A stretch of DNA of 64,000 nucleotides from Gemmatimonadota bacterium (GCA_039588275.1 JBDHAC010000028.1:1782-65781); one strand, 5' to 3'; numbered from the stretch's first letter, positions 31,148-36,703 are shown. Numbers and translations: made by a program. Notes: generated by a model not told the origin, from the letters alone.

Positions 31148-31315
31148 GACTGTTCTGCAGCCCGGGCCAAAAGCCGATCCCGGGACCGGCCCCGAGAATC
31201 CTCCGAGGGCCGTGTCAGCCGTCTTTCGCATCCCAAAAAGGCCGTCATATTGCGCGTGCGACCCGCGGCTCACGTATCGGGCCGCTCCGGAGACGGTCGG
31301 TGGGAGGAGATTCGC

Positions 31316-34015
31316 ATGATACGATCGCTCGTTCACGAGCCTCACAAGATAAAGACGGTTCGCCCCGCGTCGTTCCCCAGCCTTCAGGAGCGCAAGAAGT
31401 ACCTGGCGGAGGCGCATTTCAACGTCTTCAACCTGACTCCCTCACAGGTCGGCTTCGACATGTGCTCCCTGGGGACCAGCGCCATGACCCAGGAGCAGTT
31501 GTCGGGGCAGCTGATCGGGGATGAGGCCTACGCCGGGGCCAGAAACTTCGAGCACCTGAAGAACGCGGTCCGCGACGTATTGGGGCATACCTACGTGTGT
31601 CCCACGCACAACATTCTCGGGTGCGTCAAGCTGGTGACGGCCACCATGGTCCCGGCGGGCTCGGTGGTCCCTTCGAACGCTCGCACGCGGACCGACATTC
31701 TGGCTCCGCGCCAGGTGAGTGTCCCGGACATTCGGGATCACAGCGAAGAGATCTTCACCGGTAGCGTCGATCTCGCCCGCCTGGAGGAGACCCTCGAGGA
31801 GGGGAACGTTGCGCTCATCAGCGTGCACGCGTTCGCGGACGGGCAGCACCCGTTCAGCCTCGGGAACCTGCGAGCGGTGCGCGCGCTCGCGGACCGATAC
31901 GGGGTACGGCTCGTCCTGGACGGATCGCGGGTGATCGAGAACGCCTGGTACATCCAACATCACGAGCCCGGGGTGGCCTCGCACGGCATCGCGGCCCTCG
32001 TGAAGCAGATCGCCAAGACGGCGCACGTGTTCCAGATCGACGGCGCACAGGACCCCAAGTGCCCCACCGGCGGATTGCTGGCCACCGACAACCCGCAGGA
32101 CCACGAGCACTTCATGAACGAGGTGGTGGTCTACGAAGGTCTCCACACCTACGGCGGCATGGCCGGACGAACGATGGAGGTCCTCGCTCGCGGCCTCGAG
32201 GAGATGTGCCTGGAGGATGAGGTGCAGTGGGTGATGCAGCAGACGGAGCGCTTCAGCGAGCGTCTGCGGGGCGCGGGTGTCCCGCGCGAGCGCGGGTGTG
32301 ACGGGGCGTACGTCCGCGCCGACGCCTTCTTCCCCCATCTCGAGCGATTCCAGCAGGACGCGTTTTCGGCCGCCCTATACGAGATGTCGGGCGTACGGGC
32401 GCTGGCTCACGGTCGAGTCGGCCGCGATCAGATCGTCCCGGTACAGATCCCGCGCCTGGCGATGACGAGCCGGCAACTGGACCAGGTGGCGGACGCGATC
32501 ATCAGCCTGTATCGGCAGCGGGAGATGGTTCCGCCTCTCGAGCCGGCGCGAGACGGGCGCTGGCGGGACCAGATGCGGTACCGGTGGGTGTACTCGGACC
32601 TCGAGCCATACGAGTTCGATACCTACCCCTTCCTGATCCACACCGTAGAGCGCATCGGGCGGTTGAGTCGGCGAGAACGGCAGCAGGCCATCCGCGAGGC
32701 GGGATACAACACGTTCCTCCTCCGCTCGGCCGATGTCACGATCGACCTGCTGACCGACTCGGGCACGTCGGCGATGAGCACCGATCAGTGGGCGGCCTAC
32801 GATGGGGCGCGTGCGACCCCGACCACGTCCGACGAGTACCTGCACCTGGTGGACGTTCTGCGCGAGGCCACGGGCTACGAGCACATCATCCCCACGCACC
32901 AGGGCCGGGCGGCCGAACAAATACTCTCGGAGATCATGATTCAGCCGGGTCAGATCGTGCCCGGGAACATGTATTTCACCACTACGAAGCTCCACCAGGA
33001 GCTTGCGGGGGGGATCTTCCGGGACGTCATCGTGGATGAGGCTCACGATCCGCAGAGCGACTTCCCGTGGAAGGGGAACATCGCTCTGCCCAAGCTCGAG
33101 GCTCTGGTCGAAGAGCACGGCGCCGAGAAGATCTCCTACATTTCGTTCGAGCACTCGGTGAACATGGCCGGGGGCGAGCCCGTGTCGATGGACAACATGC
33201 GGGAGGTGTACGCCTACTGCTCCAGCCACGACATCCCGGTGTTCTTCGACGCCACCCGCATGGTGGAGAACGCCTACATGATCCAGCAGCGGGACCCGCA
33301 CTACGAGAGTACGCGCGTGCGCGACATCCTGCGCGAAATGCTCCTGTACGGTGACGGGTGCACGGTGTCGGGGAAGAAGGACTTCCTGATCAACATCGGT
33401 GGCCTGCTGGCGTTCAAGGACAACGCCGAGTGGCGGGAGCTCGCGGAGGAGAAGATTCGCATCTACGAGGGGAAGGTCACCGATGGAGGGCTGGCGGCCT
33501 CCGACCTGGCGGCCATCGCGGTCGGCGTGCAGGAGATGCTGGACGATCGGTACATCCGGTCTCGAGTCCGCCAGACCGAGGCGCTCGGTCAGATGCTCCT
33601 GGACGCCGGCGTACCCATCGTCACGCCGCCGGGGACCCATGCCATCTTCCTGGACGCGAAGCGCTTCCTGTCCCATATCGACCAGGATGAGTATCCGGCC
33701 CAGCGGCTGGCGGCCGAGATCTACGTGGAGACGGGGGTGCGAGCGATGGAGCGCGGAAACGTCTCGAAAGGCCGCGATCCCGAGACCGGTGACAACTATC
33801 GGCCTCCGCTTGAGCTCGTGCGGCTGACGATTCCTCGCCGGGTGTATACGCGAGACCACATGAGGGCCGTGGCGGACGGCATCATCCGGCTGTACGAGAA
33901 GCGCGACGAGATCCAGGGGCTCAGGTTCGTGTACGAGCCGGACAAGCTCCGGTTCTTCCAGGGCCGGTTCGAGCCGGTCGAAGCCGGCGAGAGCGCGATC
34001 CCGGCCGGAGCCTAG
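31316..34015 (+). CDS. tandem fusion of two tryptophanase/tyrosine-phenol-lyase (beta-eliminating lyase) modules; N-module lacks the PLP lysine, C-module lacks the catalytic Tyr motif
   Basis: ORF 31250..34015. ATG 31316 is preceded by GGGAGGAG. N-module has GDEAYAG but DGAQD and [10 protein letters not shown]-module has [39 protein letters not shown] and [10 protein letters not shown]. Confidence 0.85.
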
Positions 34016-34064: not shown

Positions 34065-35303
34065 ATGCCCGACGAGCGCGACACGCTGACCGCCCCTGGT
34101 GGAGACGGCTGGTTCGGTTCATACGGCGGGCGCTTCGTACCCGAAACGCTGATTCCGGCGCTGGATGAGTTGAGCGCCGCGTGGGCGGCGGCGTGCTCCG
34201 ACCCCGAATTCCGGCGCGAGCTCGACCAGCTGCTGCGCGAGTTCGCGGGGCGCCCCACAGCGATGTACGAAGCCCGACGACTTGGCGACGCTCTGGGCGG
34301 CGTACGCGTGTGGCTCAAGCGCGAGGACCTGTGCCACACGGGGGCCCACAAGATCAACAACACGGTGGGACAGGCGCTGCTCGCCCGGCGTATGGGGAAG
34401 GAGCGGGTCATCGCCGAAACCGGGGCGGGCCAGCACGGCGTGGCCACGGCGACCGCGTGCGCGCTGTTCGGGTTCGAGTGCGTCGTGTACATGGGCAAGG
34501 AGGACATGCGCCGTCAGGCCCTCAACGTGGAGCGCATGCGGCTCCTCGGGGCGGAAGTGCGTCAGGTAGACAGCGGCACGCGCACGCTGAAGGACGCCAC
34601 CAACGAGGCCATTCGAGACTGGGTCGAGACGGTCGAGACGACGCACTACATCATCGGCTCGGTCGTAGGGCCGGCGCCATATCCGGAGATGGTGCGCGAC
34701 TTCCAGCGGGTGATCGGGGACGAGGCCTCAGAGCAAATGACGGCCCGCGGGGTCGAGCCCGCAGCCGCCTTTGCGTGCGTCGGCGGCGGGTCCAATTCGA
34801 TCGGGTTGTTCACCGCTTTTCTGGGTCGGGGCGAGGTCGAGCTCGTCGGCGTCGAGGCGGCGGGCGAAGGGGTCGATACGGGCCGCCATGCCGCCTCGCT
34901 GGGCGCCGGGATCCCGGGGGTGCTGCACGGCTCGTACAGCTATCTGCTGCAGGATGAGGATGGACAGGTGAAGCCGGCACACTCGGTCTCGGCGGGGCTG
35001 GACTACCCCGGCGTCGGCCCGGAGCACTCGCAGCTCCGCGACAGCGGCCGCGTCCGGTATGAATCGGTCACCGACGCACAGGCGCTCGAGGCCTTCGAGG
35101 CGCTGTGTCGCCACGAGGGCATCATCCCGGCCCTCGAAAGCGCGCACGCGCTCGCGCGGCTGGCGGCGGAGAAGGAACGCTGGGCGGGCCGCGATGTGCT
35201 CGTGTGCCTGAGCGGCCGGGGCGACAAGGACGTCGGAGAGGTGGCGGCGCTGATCGGCCGGAAGCTCCCGGCGGGTCTCCAGAGCTCCTCAGTCTCGGAC
35301 TGA
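34065..35303 (+). CDS. trpB: tryptophan synthase beta chain
   Basis: HTGAHKINN (PLP lysine), GAGQHG, GGGSN and [11 protein letters not shown] motifs. Confidence 0.95.
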
Positions 35304-35336
35304 CAGCTGAATCGTCGACCCGAGGGGGTCCACCGA

Positions 35337-35939
35337 ATGGCATTCATCGATTACGTGAACGAGGACGAGATCCCACCCGAAGACCGGGTGCCGGACCACG
35401 ACAACATCGTCCGCATTCACGGCGTACACAGCCACACCATGCGCCAGCACTACGATCTGTATCGCGAGCTGATGTACGCGAAGGGGCCACTCACTCGAAT
35501 CCAGCGCGAGATGATCGCTGTCGTCGTGTCGGCGGAGAATCGGTGCAAGTACTGACTGCTGCACCACGGGGAGGGTCTCCGTCGACTGCTGGAAGCCAAG
35601 GGGATGACCCCGGAGCCGCGAGAAGCGCTTCTCACCGCGCTGGCTATCGATCGGGAGGGTGCCGACCTGACGCCGCCCGACCGCGCGATGCTGGATTACG
35701 TCGTGAAGCTGACGCTGACGCCCGGTGATATCGGAGAAGCGGACGTCGATGCCCTGCGCGCGCACGGGTTCGACGATCGCGGGATCCACGATATCTGCGC
35801 CATCACGGCGTATTACGCGTTCGTAAATCGGATGGCCGACGGTCTCGGGGTCGAGCTCGAGCCCGACAGGAGCGACACGCTCGCGCGCGGACCCGGGTTC
35901 GATGGATCAGGCGGCGGCCAACCCGACGGCGACGCATGA
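35337..35939 (+). CDS. AhpD/carboxymuconolactone-decarboxylase-like peroxidase-related protein, predicted selenoprotein (in-frame TGA 35553-35555 read as Sec in a C-K-Y-U motif)
   Basis: Track ORFs 35337..35555 and 35604..35939 are in the same frame, separated by a single TGA. The joined sequence reads ...MIAVVVSAENRCKY-TGA-LLHHGEGL..., with the TGA at the second Cys position of the family CxxC motif. Downstream family motifs are intact. A SECIS-like hairpin follows. Stop overlaps the trpA start (ATGA). Confidence 0.7.
35567..35584 (+). other. candidate bacterial SECIS hairpin
   Basis: Begins 11 nt after the TGA. Pairs C67-G84, G68-C83, G69-U82, (G81 bulge), G70-C80, G71-C79, A72-U78, G73-C77. 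Apical loop GGU (35574-35576). Confidence 0.45.
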
Positions 35940-36703
35940 TCGAGCTTCGCCGAGACGGTCGCGCGGGATTCATCCCGTTCCTCACGCATGGGTTCCCGAC
36001 GCCCGAGGCCACACCGGGACTTCTTGCCACCCTCGCGAGCGCCGGCGCCGACGTGATCGAGCTGGGCGTGCCGTTCAGCGACCCGCTCGCCGACGGACCG
36101 ACGATCCAGCGAGCGAGCTGGCGGGCGCTCGAGGGAGGGATAACGCTCGAGAGCACTCTCGATCTGGTGCGTGGACTCTCCGCCGACCTGCCCCCGATCG
36201 TGATCTTCAGTTATCTGAACCCCGTCCTGCGCATGGGGGTCGAGAGGTTCCTGGAGCGAGCCGAGGCCGCCGGGGCGGCGGGCCTGTTGATCACCGACTT
36301 GCCGGTCGGGACACACCCCGACCTGGAAGGTCGACTGGCCGCCTCGAAGCTCGACCTGATTCCGCTGGTCGCCCCCACGACTCCGAGGGCGCGACTCGAG
36401 ACGATCGTCGGACACGCATCGGGCTTCCTTTACTACATATCCCGTCTCGGTGTGACCGGGGCGCGCGAAAGCCTCGACGAGGGCTTGGGGAGCAAGGTCG
36501 AGGAGCTGAGACGCCTGGTCGAGCTGCCGGTCGCCGTCGGCTTCGGAATCTCGACGGCCGAGCAGGCGAGAGCCGTGGCCGCGATCGCGGATGGAGTAGT
36601 CGTGGGATCCGCCCTCATCGCCGCCCTTGAGCGGGGCGAAGATTCGTTCGCCGCTCTGGCGCACGAGCTGGCCGGGGCTGTGCACGGGGATCCCGGTGAC
36701 TGA
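35936..36703 (+). CDS. trpA: tryptophan synthase alpha chain
   Basis: FIPFLTHGFP, IELGVPFSDPLADGPTIQ, YYISRLGVTG and GFGIS motifs. Confidence 0.95.
   Translation: MIELRRDGRAGFIPFLTHGFPTPEATPGLLATLASAGADVIELGVPFSDPLADGPTIQRASWRALEGGITLESTLDLVRGLSADLPPIVIFSYLNPVLRMGVERFLERAEAAGAAGLLITDLPVGTHPDLEGRLAASKLDLIPLVAPTTPRARLETIVGHASGFLYYISRLGVTGARESLDEGLGSKVEELRRLVELPVAVGFGISTAEQARAVAAIADGVVVGSALIAALERGEDSFAALAHELAGAVHGDPGD

Follow-up and report, generated by a model that had tools for sequence, protein, structure and literature searches.

We found that positions 35337-35939 (plus strand) of the window, by which we mean the whole 64,000-nucleotide stretch of Gemmatimonadota DNA analysed here (GCA_039588275.1 JBDHAC010000028.1:1782-65781), most probably hold one functional gene of the AhpD-like family (TIGR01926/COG2128), in which the in-frame UGA at 35553-35555 is decoded as selenocysteine (Sec). 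Judging from sequence comparisons, we place the probability of this reading at about 92%. The gene is complete, with 200 codons including the one putative Sec-UGA, and ends with the TGA stop at 35937-35939; its product would be an AhpD-like ('peroxidase-related enzyme') selenoprotein with Sec as residue 73.

One reading frame across an in-frame TGA

The locus appears in the ORF list as two ORFs, 35337-35555 and 35604-35939, which lie in a common frame 267 nt apart. The in-frame translation showed that TGA 35553-35555, corresponding to codon 73, is the sole stop between 35337 and 35939; the initial annotation had described two same-frame ORFs with a single intervening TGA, and both the ORF list and the translation bore this out. 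The peptide around the TGA reads ...RIQREMIAVVVSAENRCKY-TGA-LLHHGEGLRRLLEAKG..., and, when a longer part of the read-through peptide is taken, ...QREMIAVVVSAENRCKY-TGA-LLHHGEGLRRLLEAKG.... The M1-A2 start of the gene is common to its homologues in the alignment, and a Shine-Dalgarno-like GAGGGGG (35322-35328), presumably functional, precedes the ATG at 35337 by 8 nt. In the public records only a 111-aa ORF was called at this locus, under the name 'uncharacterized peroxidase-related enzyme'.

We examined the codon at the TGA column in 153 related loci from genomes and metagenomes and found TGA in 139 and TGC/TGT in 14, a Sec:Cys ratio of 139:14 that is a biased frequency, as the genome and metagenome scans each took the best 80 matches to the query. 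Among species-representative genomes, TGA was present in 79 out of 80 loci and TGT in one, with at least 8 phyla represented; the genomes included members of the Acidobacteriota, Gemmatimonadota, Calditrichota, Chloroflexota, Marinimicrobia, Planctomycetota and Zixibacteria, as well as Desulfosarcina. The metagenome scan returned 73 loci, with 60 TGA versus 13 TGC/TGT, though it had been seeded with Cys forms. There is no ambiguity in the recurrence of the TGA across relatives, where the frame is intact to either side of it, and the comparison with homologues that the initial annotation had proposed as a check shows both TGA and Cys codons at this column.

Such recurrence bears directly on the idea that the locus is a decaying pseudogene, with the TGA produced by a recent nonsense mutation or by a sequencing or assembly error in which TGC/TGT was misread as TGA. 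A single base does separate the TGA from a Cys codon, and Cys forms of the family are known, but the same TGA was found in 139 independent assemblies from many phyla, and no further stops or frameshifts occur downstream of it. When the gene was compared with 11 relatives, dN/dS was approximately 0.1-0.3 both for the 72 codons upstream and for the 77 codons downstream of the TGA (approximately 0.2 downstream), which excludes a pseudogene, and the locus has kept a canonical SECIS. These four observations (TGA recurrence, intact frame, dN/dS and SECIS) effectively refute the reading as a pseudogene or error. That the locus is not a decayed pseudogene had been argued before; purifying selection downstream of the TGA, together with the lack of a further stop there, now upholds it.

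The protein search recovered relatives of three kinds, namely full-length proteins with CxxC, split fragments, and 'full-length' proteins with a Trp at the column (47 CxxC and 31 CxxW out of 120 protein matches). The split relatives break at the same place: the N-terminal fragments end in '...C(R/K)Y' and the C-terminal fragments begin with 'xHHGxGLR'. The Trp found at this column in 31 database homologues could suggest that the UGA is read as a standard residue, either as Trp or Gly under a reassigned code (tables 4 or 25) or as Cys or Trp through near-cognate suppression. Yet for six of the CxxW proteins, near-identical DNA (92-98%) has TGA at the position of the W residue, so we regard the Trp at this column as a gene-caller artefact. 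Furthermore, TGA is the commonest ordinary stop of the window and closes 43 out of its 88 long ORFs, among them trpB, trpA and the AhpD-like gene itself, which excludes genetic codes 4 and 25. A Trp or Gly at the position of the catalytic Cys would also inactivate the CxxC centre, and the conserved hairpin described below points to SelB-dependent decoding. Insertion of a standard residue at codon 73 is therefore extremely improbable, and decoding as Sec is the reading that we retain.

An AhpD-like protein with a probable Sec as the second residue of the CxxC pair

For the profile searches we used the 200-aa product with Cys in place of the internal stop. The product matched the NCBIfam model TIGR01926 ('peroxidase-related enzyme') with 121 bits against a curated cutoff of 81.8, residues 23-176 aligning to profile positions 31-177 out of 178, and this match above the cutoff supports the assignment to the AhpD/CMD family made in the initial annotation. 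The AhpD core-domain model TIGR00778 was also matched (42.7 bits against 27.8), as was the Pfam CMD domain PF02627 (44.7 bits against a gathering score of 23), which shows the fold or superfamily only and not decarboxylase activity. Two more specific assignments were rejected. AhpD proper, the reductant of AhpC, was set aside because there was no match to the AhpD equivalog, only to the TIGR00778 core domain, and no linkage to ahpC. The model NF041238 (AhpD_rel_CFYUT, 'alkylhydroperoxidase-related (seleno)protein') gave 42.1 bits, far below its cutoff of 175, and thus represents a different subfamily; together with the CMD-like CxxU proteins (PF02627), it shares with the window protein the superfamily and the CxxU logic.

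The nearest solved structures were 3C1L, 2PRR, 2PFX, 2OYO and 6K40, with E-values from 1e-25 to 1e-19, and all of them have CxxC at the aligned position. We took the AhpD fold as fixed because these sequence-level PDB matches reach E = 1e-25. A literature search on PDB entry 6K40 turned up nothing relevant. The redox motif C70-K-Y72-U73 (TGC AAG TAC TGA, 35544-35555) aligns with C-Y-Y-C of 3C1L and C-L-Y-C of 2PRR; the TGA therefore falls on the second Cys of CxxC, as the initial annotation had stated, and both the Cys homologues and the solved structures agree on this placement. In the 80 Sec forms aligned at this position, C was invariant at -3, Y at -1 and TGA at 0.

The residues around the motif follow the proton relay of AhpD. 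The codon of the relay glutamate, Glu58 (35508-35510), lies 11 residues before Cys70, and the codon of the relay histidine, His77 (CAC, 35565-35567), lies three residues past U73, where it overlaps the base of the SECIS stem. The spacing E58-x11-C70-x-Y72-U73-x3-H77 is identical to that of Pseudomonas aeruginosa PA0269, in which the proton-relay residues are Glu36, Cys48, Tyr50, Cys51 and His55 (PMC3141380). In the alignment of close homologues, E58, Y72 and H77 were invariant and C70 was nearly so. The window protein thus shares with M. tuberculosis AhpD (1GU9) and PA0269 (2O4D) the all-helical CMD/AhpD core and the relay Glu...Cys-x-(His/Tyr)-Cys-x3-His, with Sec predicted as the second Cys, whereas the subfamily structures 3C1L, 2PRR, 2PFX and 2OYO differ from AhpD in having extra terminal helices.

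The product is therefore expected to combine the AhpD fold and the proton-relay signature of AhpD with a Sec that replaces the second Cys. By analogy with AhpD chemistry, U73 would be the reactive nucleophile, activated through a relay of H77, water and E58, and it may attack a peroxide or an oxidised peroxiredoxin-type partner. C70 would then resolve U73 into a selenenylsulfide, and the couple would subsequently be re-reduced. In M. tuberculosis AhpD, it is the second Cys (Cys133) that was reportedly found to be the nucleophile by Koshkin et al. in 2003.

The family itself is well described. In 2005, Zhang, Fomenko and Gladyshev described the 'AhpD-like protein' (COG2128, CxxU) of the Sargasso Sea as a selenoprotein family that was then new, with 27 sequences and a predicted SECIS containing a conserved loop G (PMC1088965). 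In the GOS data it was the fourth most abundant selenoprotein family, represented by 299 Sec and 902 Cys forms (PMC2398784). A review of 2026 lists it in a table as AhpD-like protein, TIGR01926, CxxU (PMC13188914), and a database paper of the same year uses the family as its browsing example (PMC13326102). The window protein and this family ('AhpD-like 1', COG2128/TIGR01926) share the same model, the CxxU motif, coexisting Cys homologues and a SECIS directly downstream with a G in the small apical loop, and nothing essential differs. The window copy does carry a Gly/Asp-rich C-terminal tail of 22-25 residues extending to the start of trpA, and its place within a trp operon is specific to a Gemmatimonadota lineage. 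In every feature that can be tested from sequence, then, the locus appears to be a member of the AhpD-like TIGR01926/COG2128 CxxU family.

The SECIS hairpin and its conservation

We detected a hairpin at 35566-35582 that consists of a 5' arm ACGGGGA (35566-35572), a GGG loop (35573-35575) and a 3' arm UCUCCGU (35576-35582). It forms 7 bp including one G-U, has no bulge, folds with -7.5 kcal/mol and is part of the MFE structure. The hairpin starts 10-11 nt past the UGA, and 17 nt (35556-35572) separate the UGA from the loop. The published bSECIS model comprises four constraints: a loop of 3-9 nt with an upper stem of 4-16 bp, a G within the first two loop positions, a distance of 16-37 nt from UGA to loop, and an MFE at or below -7.5 kcal/mol (PMC13188914, Fig. 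2A). The window hairpin agrees with all four, its energy of -7.5 kcal/mol being exactly at the threshold, so the search for a SECIS in the region after the TGA ended in an element that fits the model. The initial annotation had placed a hairpin here, at 35567-35584, with 7 pairs, one G-U, a 1-nt bulge and a GGU loop. A SECIS-like hairpin is present, as it had proposed, but its register was off by about 1 nt: the 35567-35584 structure can be drawn, but it is neither the MFE nor the conserved register.

Compared with the E. coli fdhF SECIS and the bSECISearch consensus, the window element is likewise an in-coding hairpin starting 10-11 nt past the UGA, with the loop at 17 nt. Unlike fdhF, it has a short 7-bp stem, a GGG triloop and no bulged U, and it shows no similarity in primary sequence. 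Searches with Rfam returned nothing meaningful, either at the gathering threshold for the whole window or at permissive E-values for 35450-35700; Rfam is without any model that detects the AhpD-like hairpin.

As found in a single sequence, the hairpin is weak evidence, and its significance rests on comparative data. The 61-nt region folded no better than its own shuffles (z = +1.37), and the loose bSECIS constraints were passed after 11.3% of all TGA triplets in the window, which has 67% GC. A strict version of the constraints (at least 7 bp, with a loop of 3-5 nt starting 16-19 nt past the UGA) was passed by 2 out of 1437 TGA triplets.

Across relatives the hairpin was found at the same register in almost all Sec forms. 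In an ungapped alignment of 134 sequences, the hairpin at 35566-35582 paired in 84.0% of cells, versus 33-52% in slid registers, and the register with the GGU loop and the 1-nt bulge paired in 64.6%. The window shares its GGG loop with 104 out of the 134 relatives, and in many relatives the SECIS has a CGGGN pentaloop instead of the GGG triloop of the window. Two-sided changes were present in 32 cells, a number reached by 0 out of 500 shuffles, and were located mainly at the closing pair, where 33 sequences have C-G and 23 have A-U. Compensatory variants included A-U to G-C in three loci (L079, L090 and L093) and C-G to U-A in two (L130 and L131). True two-sided covariation was modest, affecting 3 out of the 7 pairs. 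RNAalifold predicted no pairs for the full set of 134 aligned post-UGA segments, and it recovered the hairpin on homogeneous subsets, namely 76 rows (the window and the genome loci) and 89 canonical rows. The full set also includes re-registered stems (CGGAGCA-GGUC-UGCUCCG in L091, L121, L125 and L148) and a few sequences without an obvious hairpin at the SECIS position. As RNAalifold works only on homogeneous subsets, we relied on the counts for the named structure and on the statistics of synonymous sites.

The SECIS stem runs across codons +4 to +9 (His-Gly-Ala/Glu-Gly-Leu-Arg), which allows selection at the RNA level to be probed through synonymous sites. We compared codon use at each site with the way that amino acid is encoded in the remainder of the 140 Sec-form genes. 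His+4 was encoded by CAC in 92% of the Sec forms (129 out of 140), against 65% elsewhere, and Gly+5 by GGA or GGG, whose third position pairs with U, in 99% against 45%. GCG for Ala+6, which places the loop G at the third codon position, reached 89% at the site and 36% elsewhere. The corresponding values were 84% and 29% for CTC at Leu+8, and 83% and 13% for CGT at Arg+9. Fisher p values for these biases ranged from 1e-12 to 1e-67 and are inflated, as related sequences were treated as independent. None of the five biases was seen in the 14 Cys forms, which make a small control set. Local folding followed the same division, with a mean MFE of -8.7 kcal/mol in Sec forms and -4.1 kcal/mol in Cys forms.

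The encoded peptide showed a similar pattern. It is nearly invariant after Sec (HHG[A/E]GLRR), whereas after Cys it drifts to forms such as HHGGNLRA, HHSEALARY and HHRESLFQL. An invariant peptide in Sec forms combined with drift in Cys forms reads as the signature of a SECIS within a coding region, and the synonymous-site statistics indicate selection on the hairpin at the RNA level that is confined to Sec forms. According to the established bacterial mechanism, the hairpin at 35566-35582 would recruit the complex of SelB, GTP and Sec-tRNA(Sec) while the UGA is in the ribosomal A site; the SelB complex would bind the apical loop and the upper stem and would then insert Sec.

Selenocysteine machinery, trp context and implications

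We also searched for the machinery of Sec insertion. ARAGORN detected no tRNA genes, tRNA-Sec included, in the 64-kb window, and no tRNA-Sec in 34 Gemmatimonadota loci. No sel genes were found with NCBIfam among the 30 annotated ORFs of the window, and tblastn with E. coli SelA, SelB and SelD gave no match to it. When tblastn was extended to the window plus 1.49 Mb of relatives' flanks, no SelA or SelD was recovered, and the SelB matches were weak and confined to the N-terminal GTPase region. These negatives cover the window and the flanks of relatives, and are uninformative for the whole genome. Other in-frame TGA candidates for selenoproteins in the window corresponded only to gene junctions and antisense frames. 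Finally, a literature search on Sec use in Gemmatimonadota turned up nothing relevant.

The lack of Sec machinery in the window, and the fact that the current annotation calls the 111-aa ORF only, would be in line with a UGA that simply terminates translation, leaving a 72-aa N-terminal fragment and possibly a separately initiated C-terminal fragment of 111 aa (from ATG 35604). The absence of machinery from 64 kb says little, though, because Sec genes are normally unlinked to it. Codons 74-89, which lie between the TGA and ATG 35604, rank with the most conserved codons of the family (HHGEGLRRLL), and relatives have no conserved internal start, with gene callers choosing different V or M codons. 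Splitting the protein would also part C70 from H77 and break the active-site helix, and termination leaves the synonymous-site selection on the hairpin unexplained. We consider termination highly improbable, and decoding of the UGA as Sec remains our preferred reading.

The gene lies between trpB (tryptophan synthase beta chain, 34065-35303), which ends 33 nt upstream, and trpA (tryptophan synthase alpha chain, 35936-36703). Both names are those of the source record, trpA being additionally backed by tblastn matches, and both genes are context rather than part of the element. The stop TGA of the AhpD-like gene and the start ATG of trpA overlap in an ATGA at 35936-35939, seen in the sequence and in the ORF list; the position between trpB and trpA with this overlap is thus present as first described. 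A tandem tryptophanase/tyrosine-phenol-lyase gene is located just upstream of trpB.

The trp setting holds at this locus, but it is a lineage-specific trait of some Gemmatimonadota and not a family property. An AhpD-like gene next to trpB recurs in only 12 loci, all from Gemmatimonadota ('Candidatus Palauibacter' and relatives), where trpB is 69-74% identical to that of the window and trpA lies 1.3-6.9 kb further downstream. Most of these 12 loci also share the HHGEGLRRLL variant of the window, which therefore probably comes from a Gemmatimonadota lineage akin to theirs. Direct coupling to trpA through the ATGA is confined to the source genome and has no counterpart in relatives. Clustering of the flanking ORFs across 154 loci revealed no conserved partner such as a peroxiredoxin or ahpC, and the neighbour clusters that did recur were only lineage-specific ones (trp, lexA and other genes).

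Through translational coupling at the ATGA, TrpA synthesis could depend on Sec insertion at the UGA, or the AhpD-like selenol protein could be tied to tryptophan or indole metabolism. We rate this proposal as highly improbable, given that the coupling is not conserved in relatives; if true, the stoichiometry of tryptophan synthase would be sensitive to selenium supply.

The finding is an ordinary one, as publications on the AhpD-like selenoprotein family go back to 2005; elements of this type are already known, and the locus brings no biological novelty in kind. Few environmental selenoprotein families are more abundant than the AhpD-like CxxU proteins, and the features of their SECIS have already been described. 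What the locus offers first is a correction of the annotation: the public records split the gene, and merging the two ORFs gives the correct selenoprotein of 200 residues. In many databases, moreover, relatives are listed with a spurious Trp where Sec belongs. The 140 Sec and 14 Cys forms assembled here provide a clean example of a coding-region SECIS that constrains both the synonymous sites and the peptide it overlaps, and this dataset could seed an Rfam-style model for the AhpD-like SECIS. For the organism itself, the merged gene flags the source Gemmatimonadota bacterium as a likely selenium user.

Genes around the AhpD-like selenocysteine gene

In most of the 12 Palauibacter-like Gemmatimonadota loci compared (L016, L017, L020, L022, L034, L039, L041, L045, L056, L060, L073 and L075), the gene for the AhpD-like selenoprotein was located immediately 3' of trpB as a stable insertion. 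The commonest gene order was lexA, trpC, trpF, trpB and the AhpD-like gene, while trpA was found 1.3-6.9 kb downstream, pushed away by additional genes; among these displacing genes, an ORF of about 259 aa often directly followed the AhpD-like gene.

Directly upstream of trpB in the window, we identified a tandem beta-eliminating-lyase ORF of 921 aa in two halves (31250-34015, + strand). Residues 460-908 matched the tyrosine phenol-lyase model TIGR02618 with 865 bits in the NCBIfam profile search, and were also matched by tryptophanase models. The N-terminal half is a second, diverged copy; the PLP-lysine motif SGKKD is present in the C-terminal half but appears to be absent from the N-terminal one. 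A double lyase ORF next to trpB was not found in 12 related Gemmatimonadota loci, and such a double tryptophanase/tyrosine phenol-lyase fusion adjoining tryptophan synthase is unusual.

On the other side of the AhpD-like gene, the longest ORF of the chromate-transporter gene chrA (TIGR00937; 36627-38003, + strand) begins with a TTG that overlaps the final 77 nt of trpA (35936-36703, + strand). The real chrA start is probably downstream of the TTG at 36627.

Hairpin variants and conversion to cysteine

Five Sec forms, with TGA at the second Cys of CxxC (L091, L121, L125, L135 and L148), encoded an additional Leu (HHGAGLLRL), and their stem was re-registered with 6-7 bp. Four of the five (L091, L121, L125 and L148) had a 7-bp stem with a GGUC loop (CGGAGCA-GGUC-UGCUCCG), GGUC being the loop of the E. 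coli fdhF SECIS; in the extra-Leu forms the Ala codon was changed to GCA, which allows pairing to the new 3' arm. A divergent subgroup of metagenome Sec forms (L104, L109, L134, L151 and L156; peptide ...Y*I[E/R]AHA[H/D]DLR...) had no canonical hairpin at +13 to +29, and any SECIS in this subgroup would have to lie at another position or take another shape.

Some Cys forms (proteins P0023 and P0072) still encoded HHG[A/E]GLRRL after CxxC, and this retention suggests a recent conversion from Sec to Cys. The Gemmatimonadetes locus L063, with TGT at the Sec/Cys column, had already lost the hairpin.

Other residues at the Sec/Cys column

Among the 120 matches of the AhpD-like protein search, 31 carried Trp at the Sec position and stand in public collections as 'full-length' proteins (P0001-P0003, P0058, P0068, P0073 and 25 others; associated loci L001, L081, L145 and L160). 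Since near-identical DNA has TGA at this column, the Trp is a gene-calling artefact, in which TGA was read as Trp on short contigs. Other protein records had Ser (P0011, P0013 and P0107), Gly (P0022 and P0078), Arg (P0025 and P0031) or Leu (P0028 and P0033) at the column, and in P0014 Ser replaced the first Cys (SxxC). These variants, seen at the protein level only, may be true substitutions or more decoding artefacts, e.g. a Gly that arose when TGA was translated with table 25. Gene calls that read TGA as Trp conceal selenoproteins in public protein collections.
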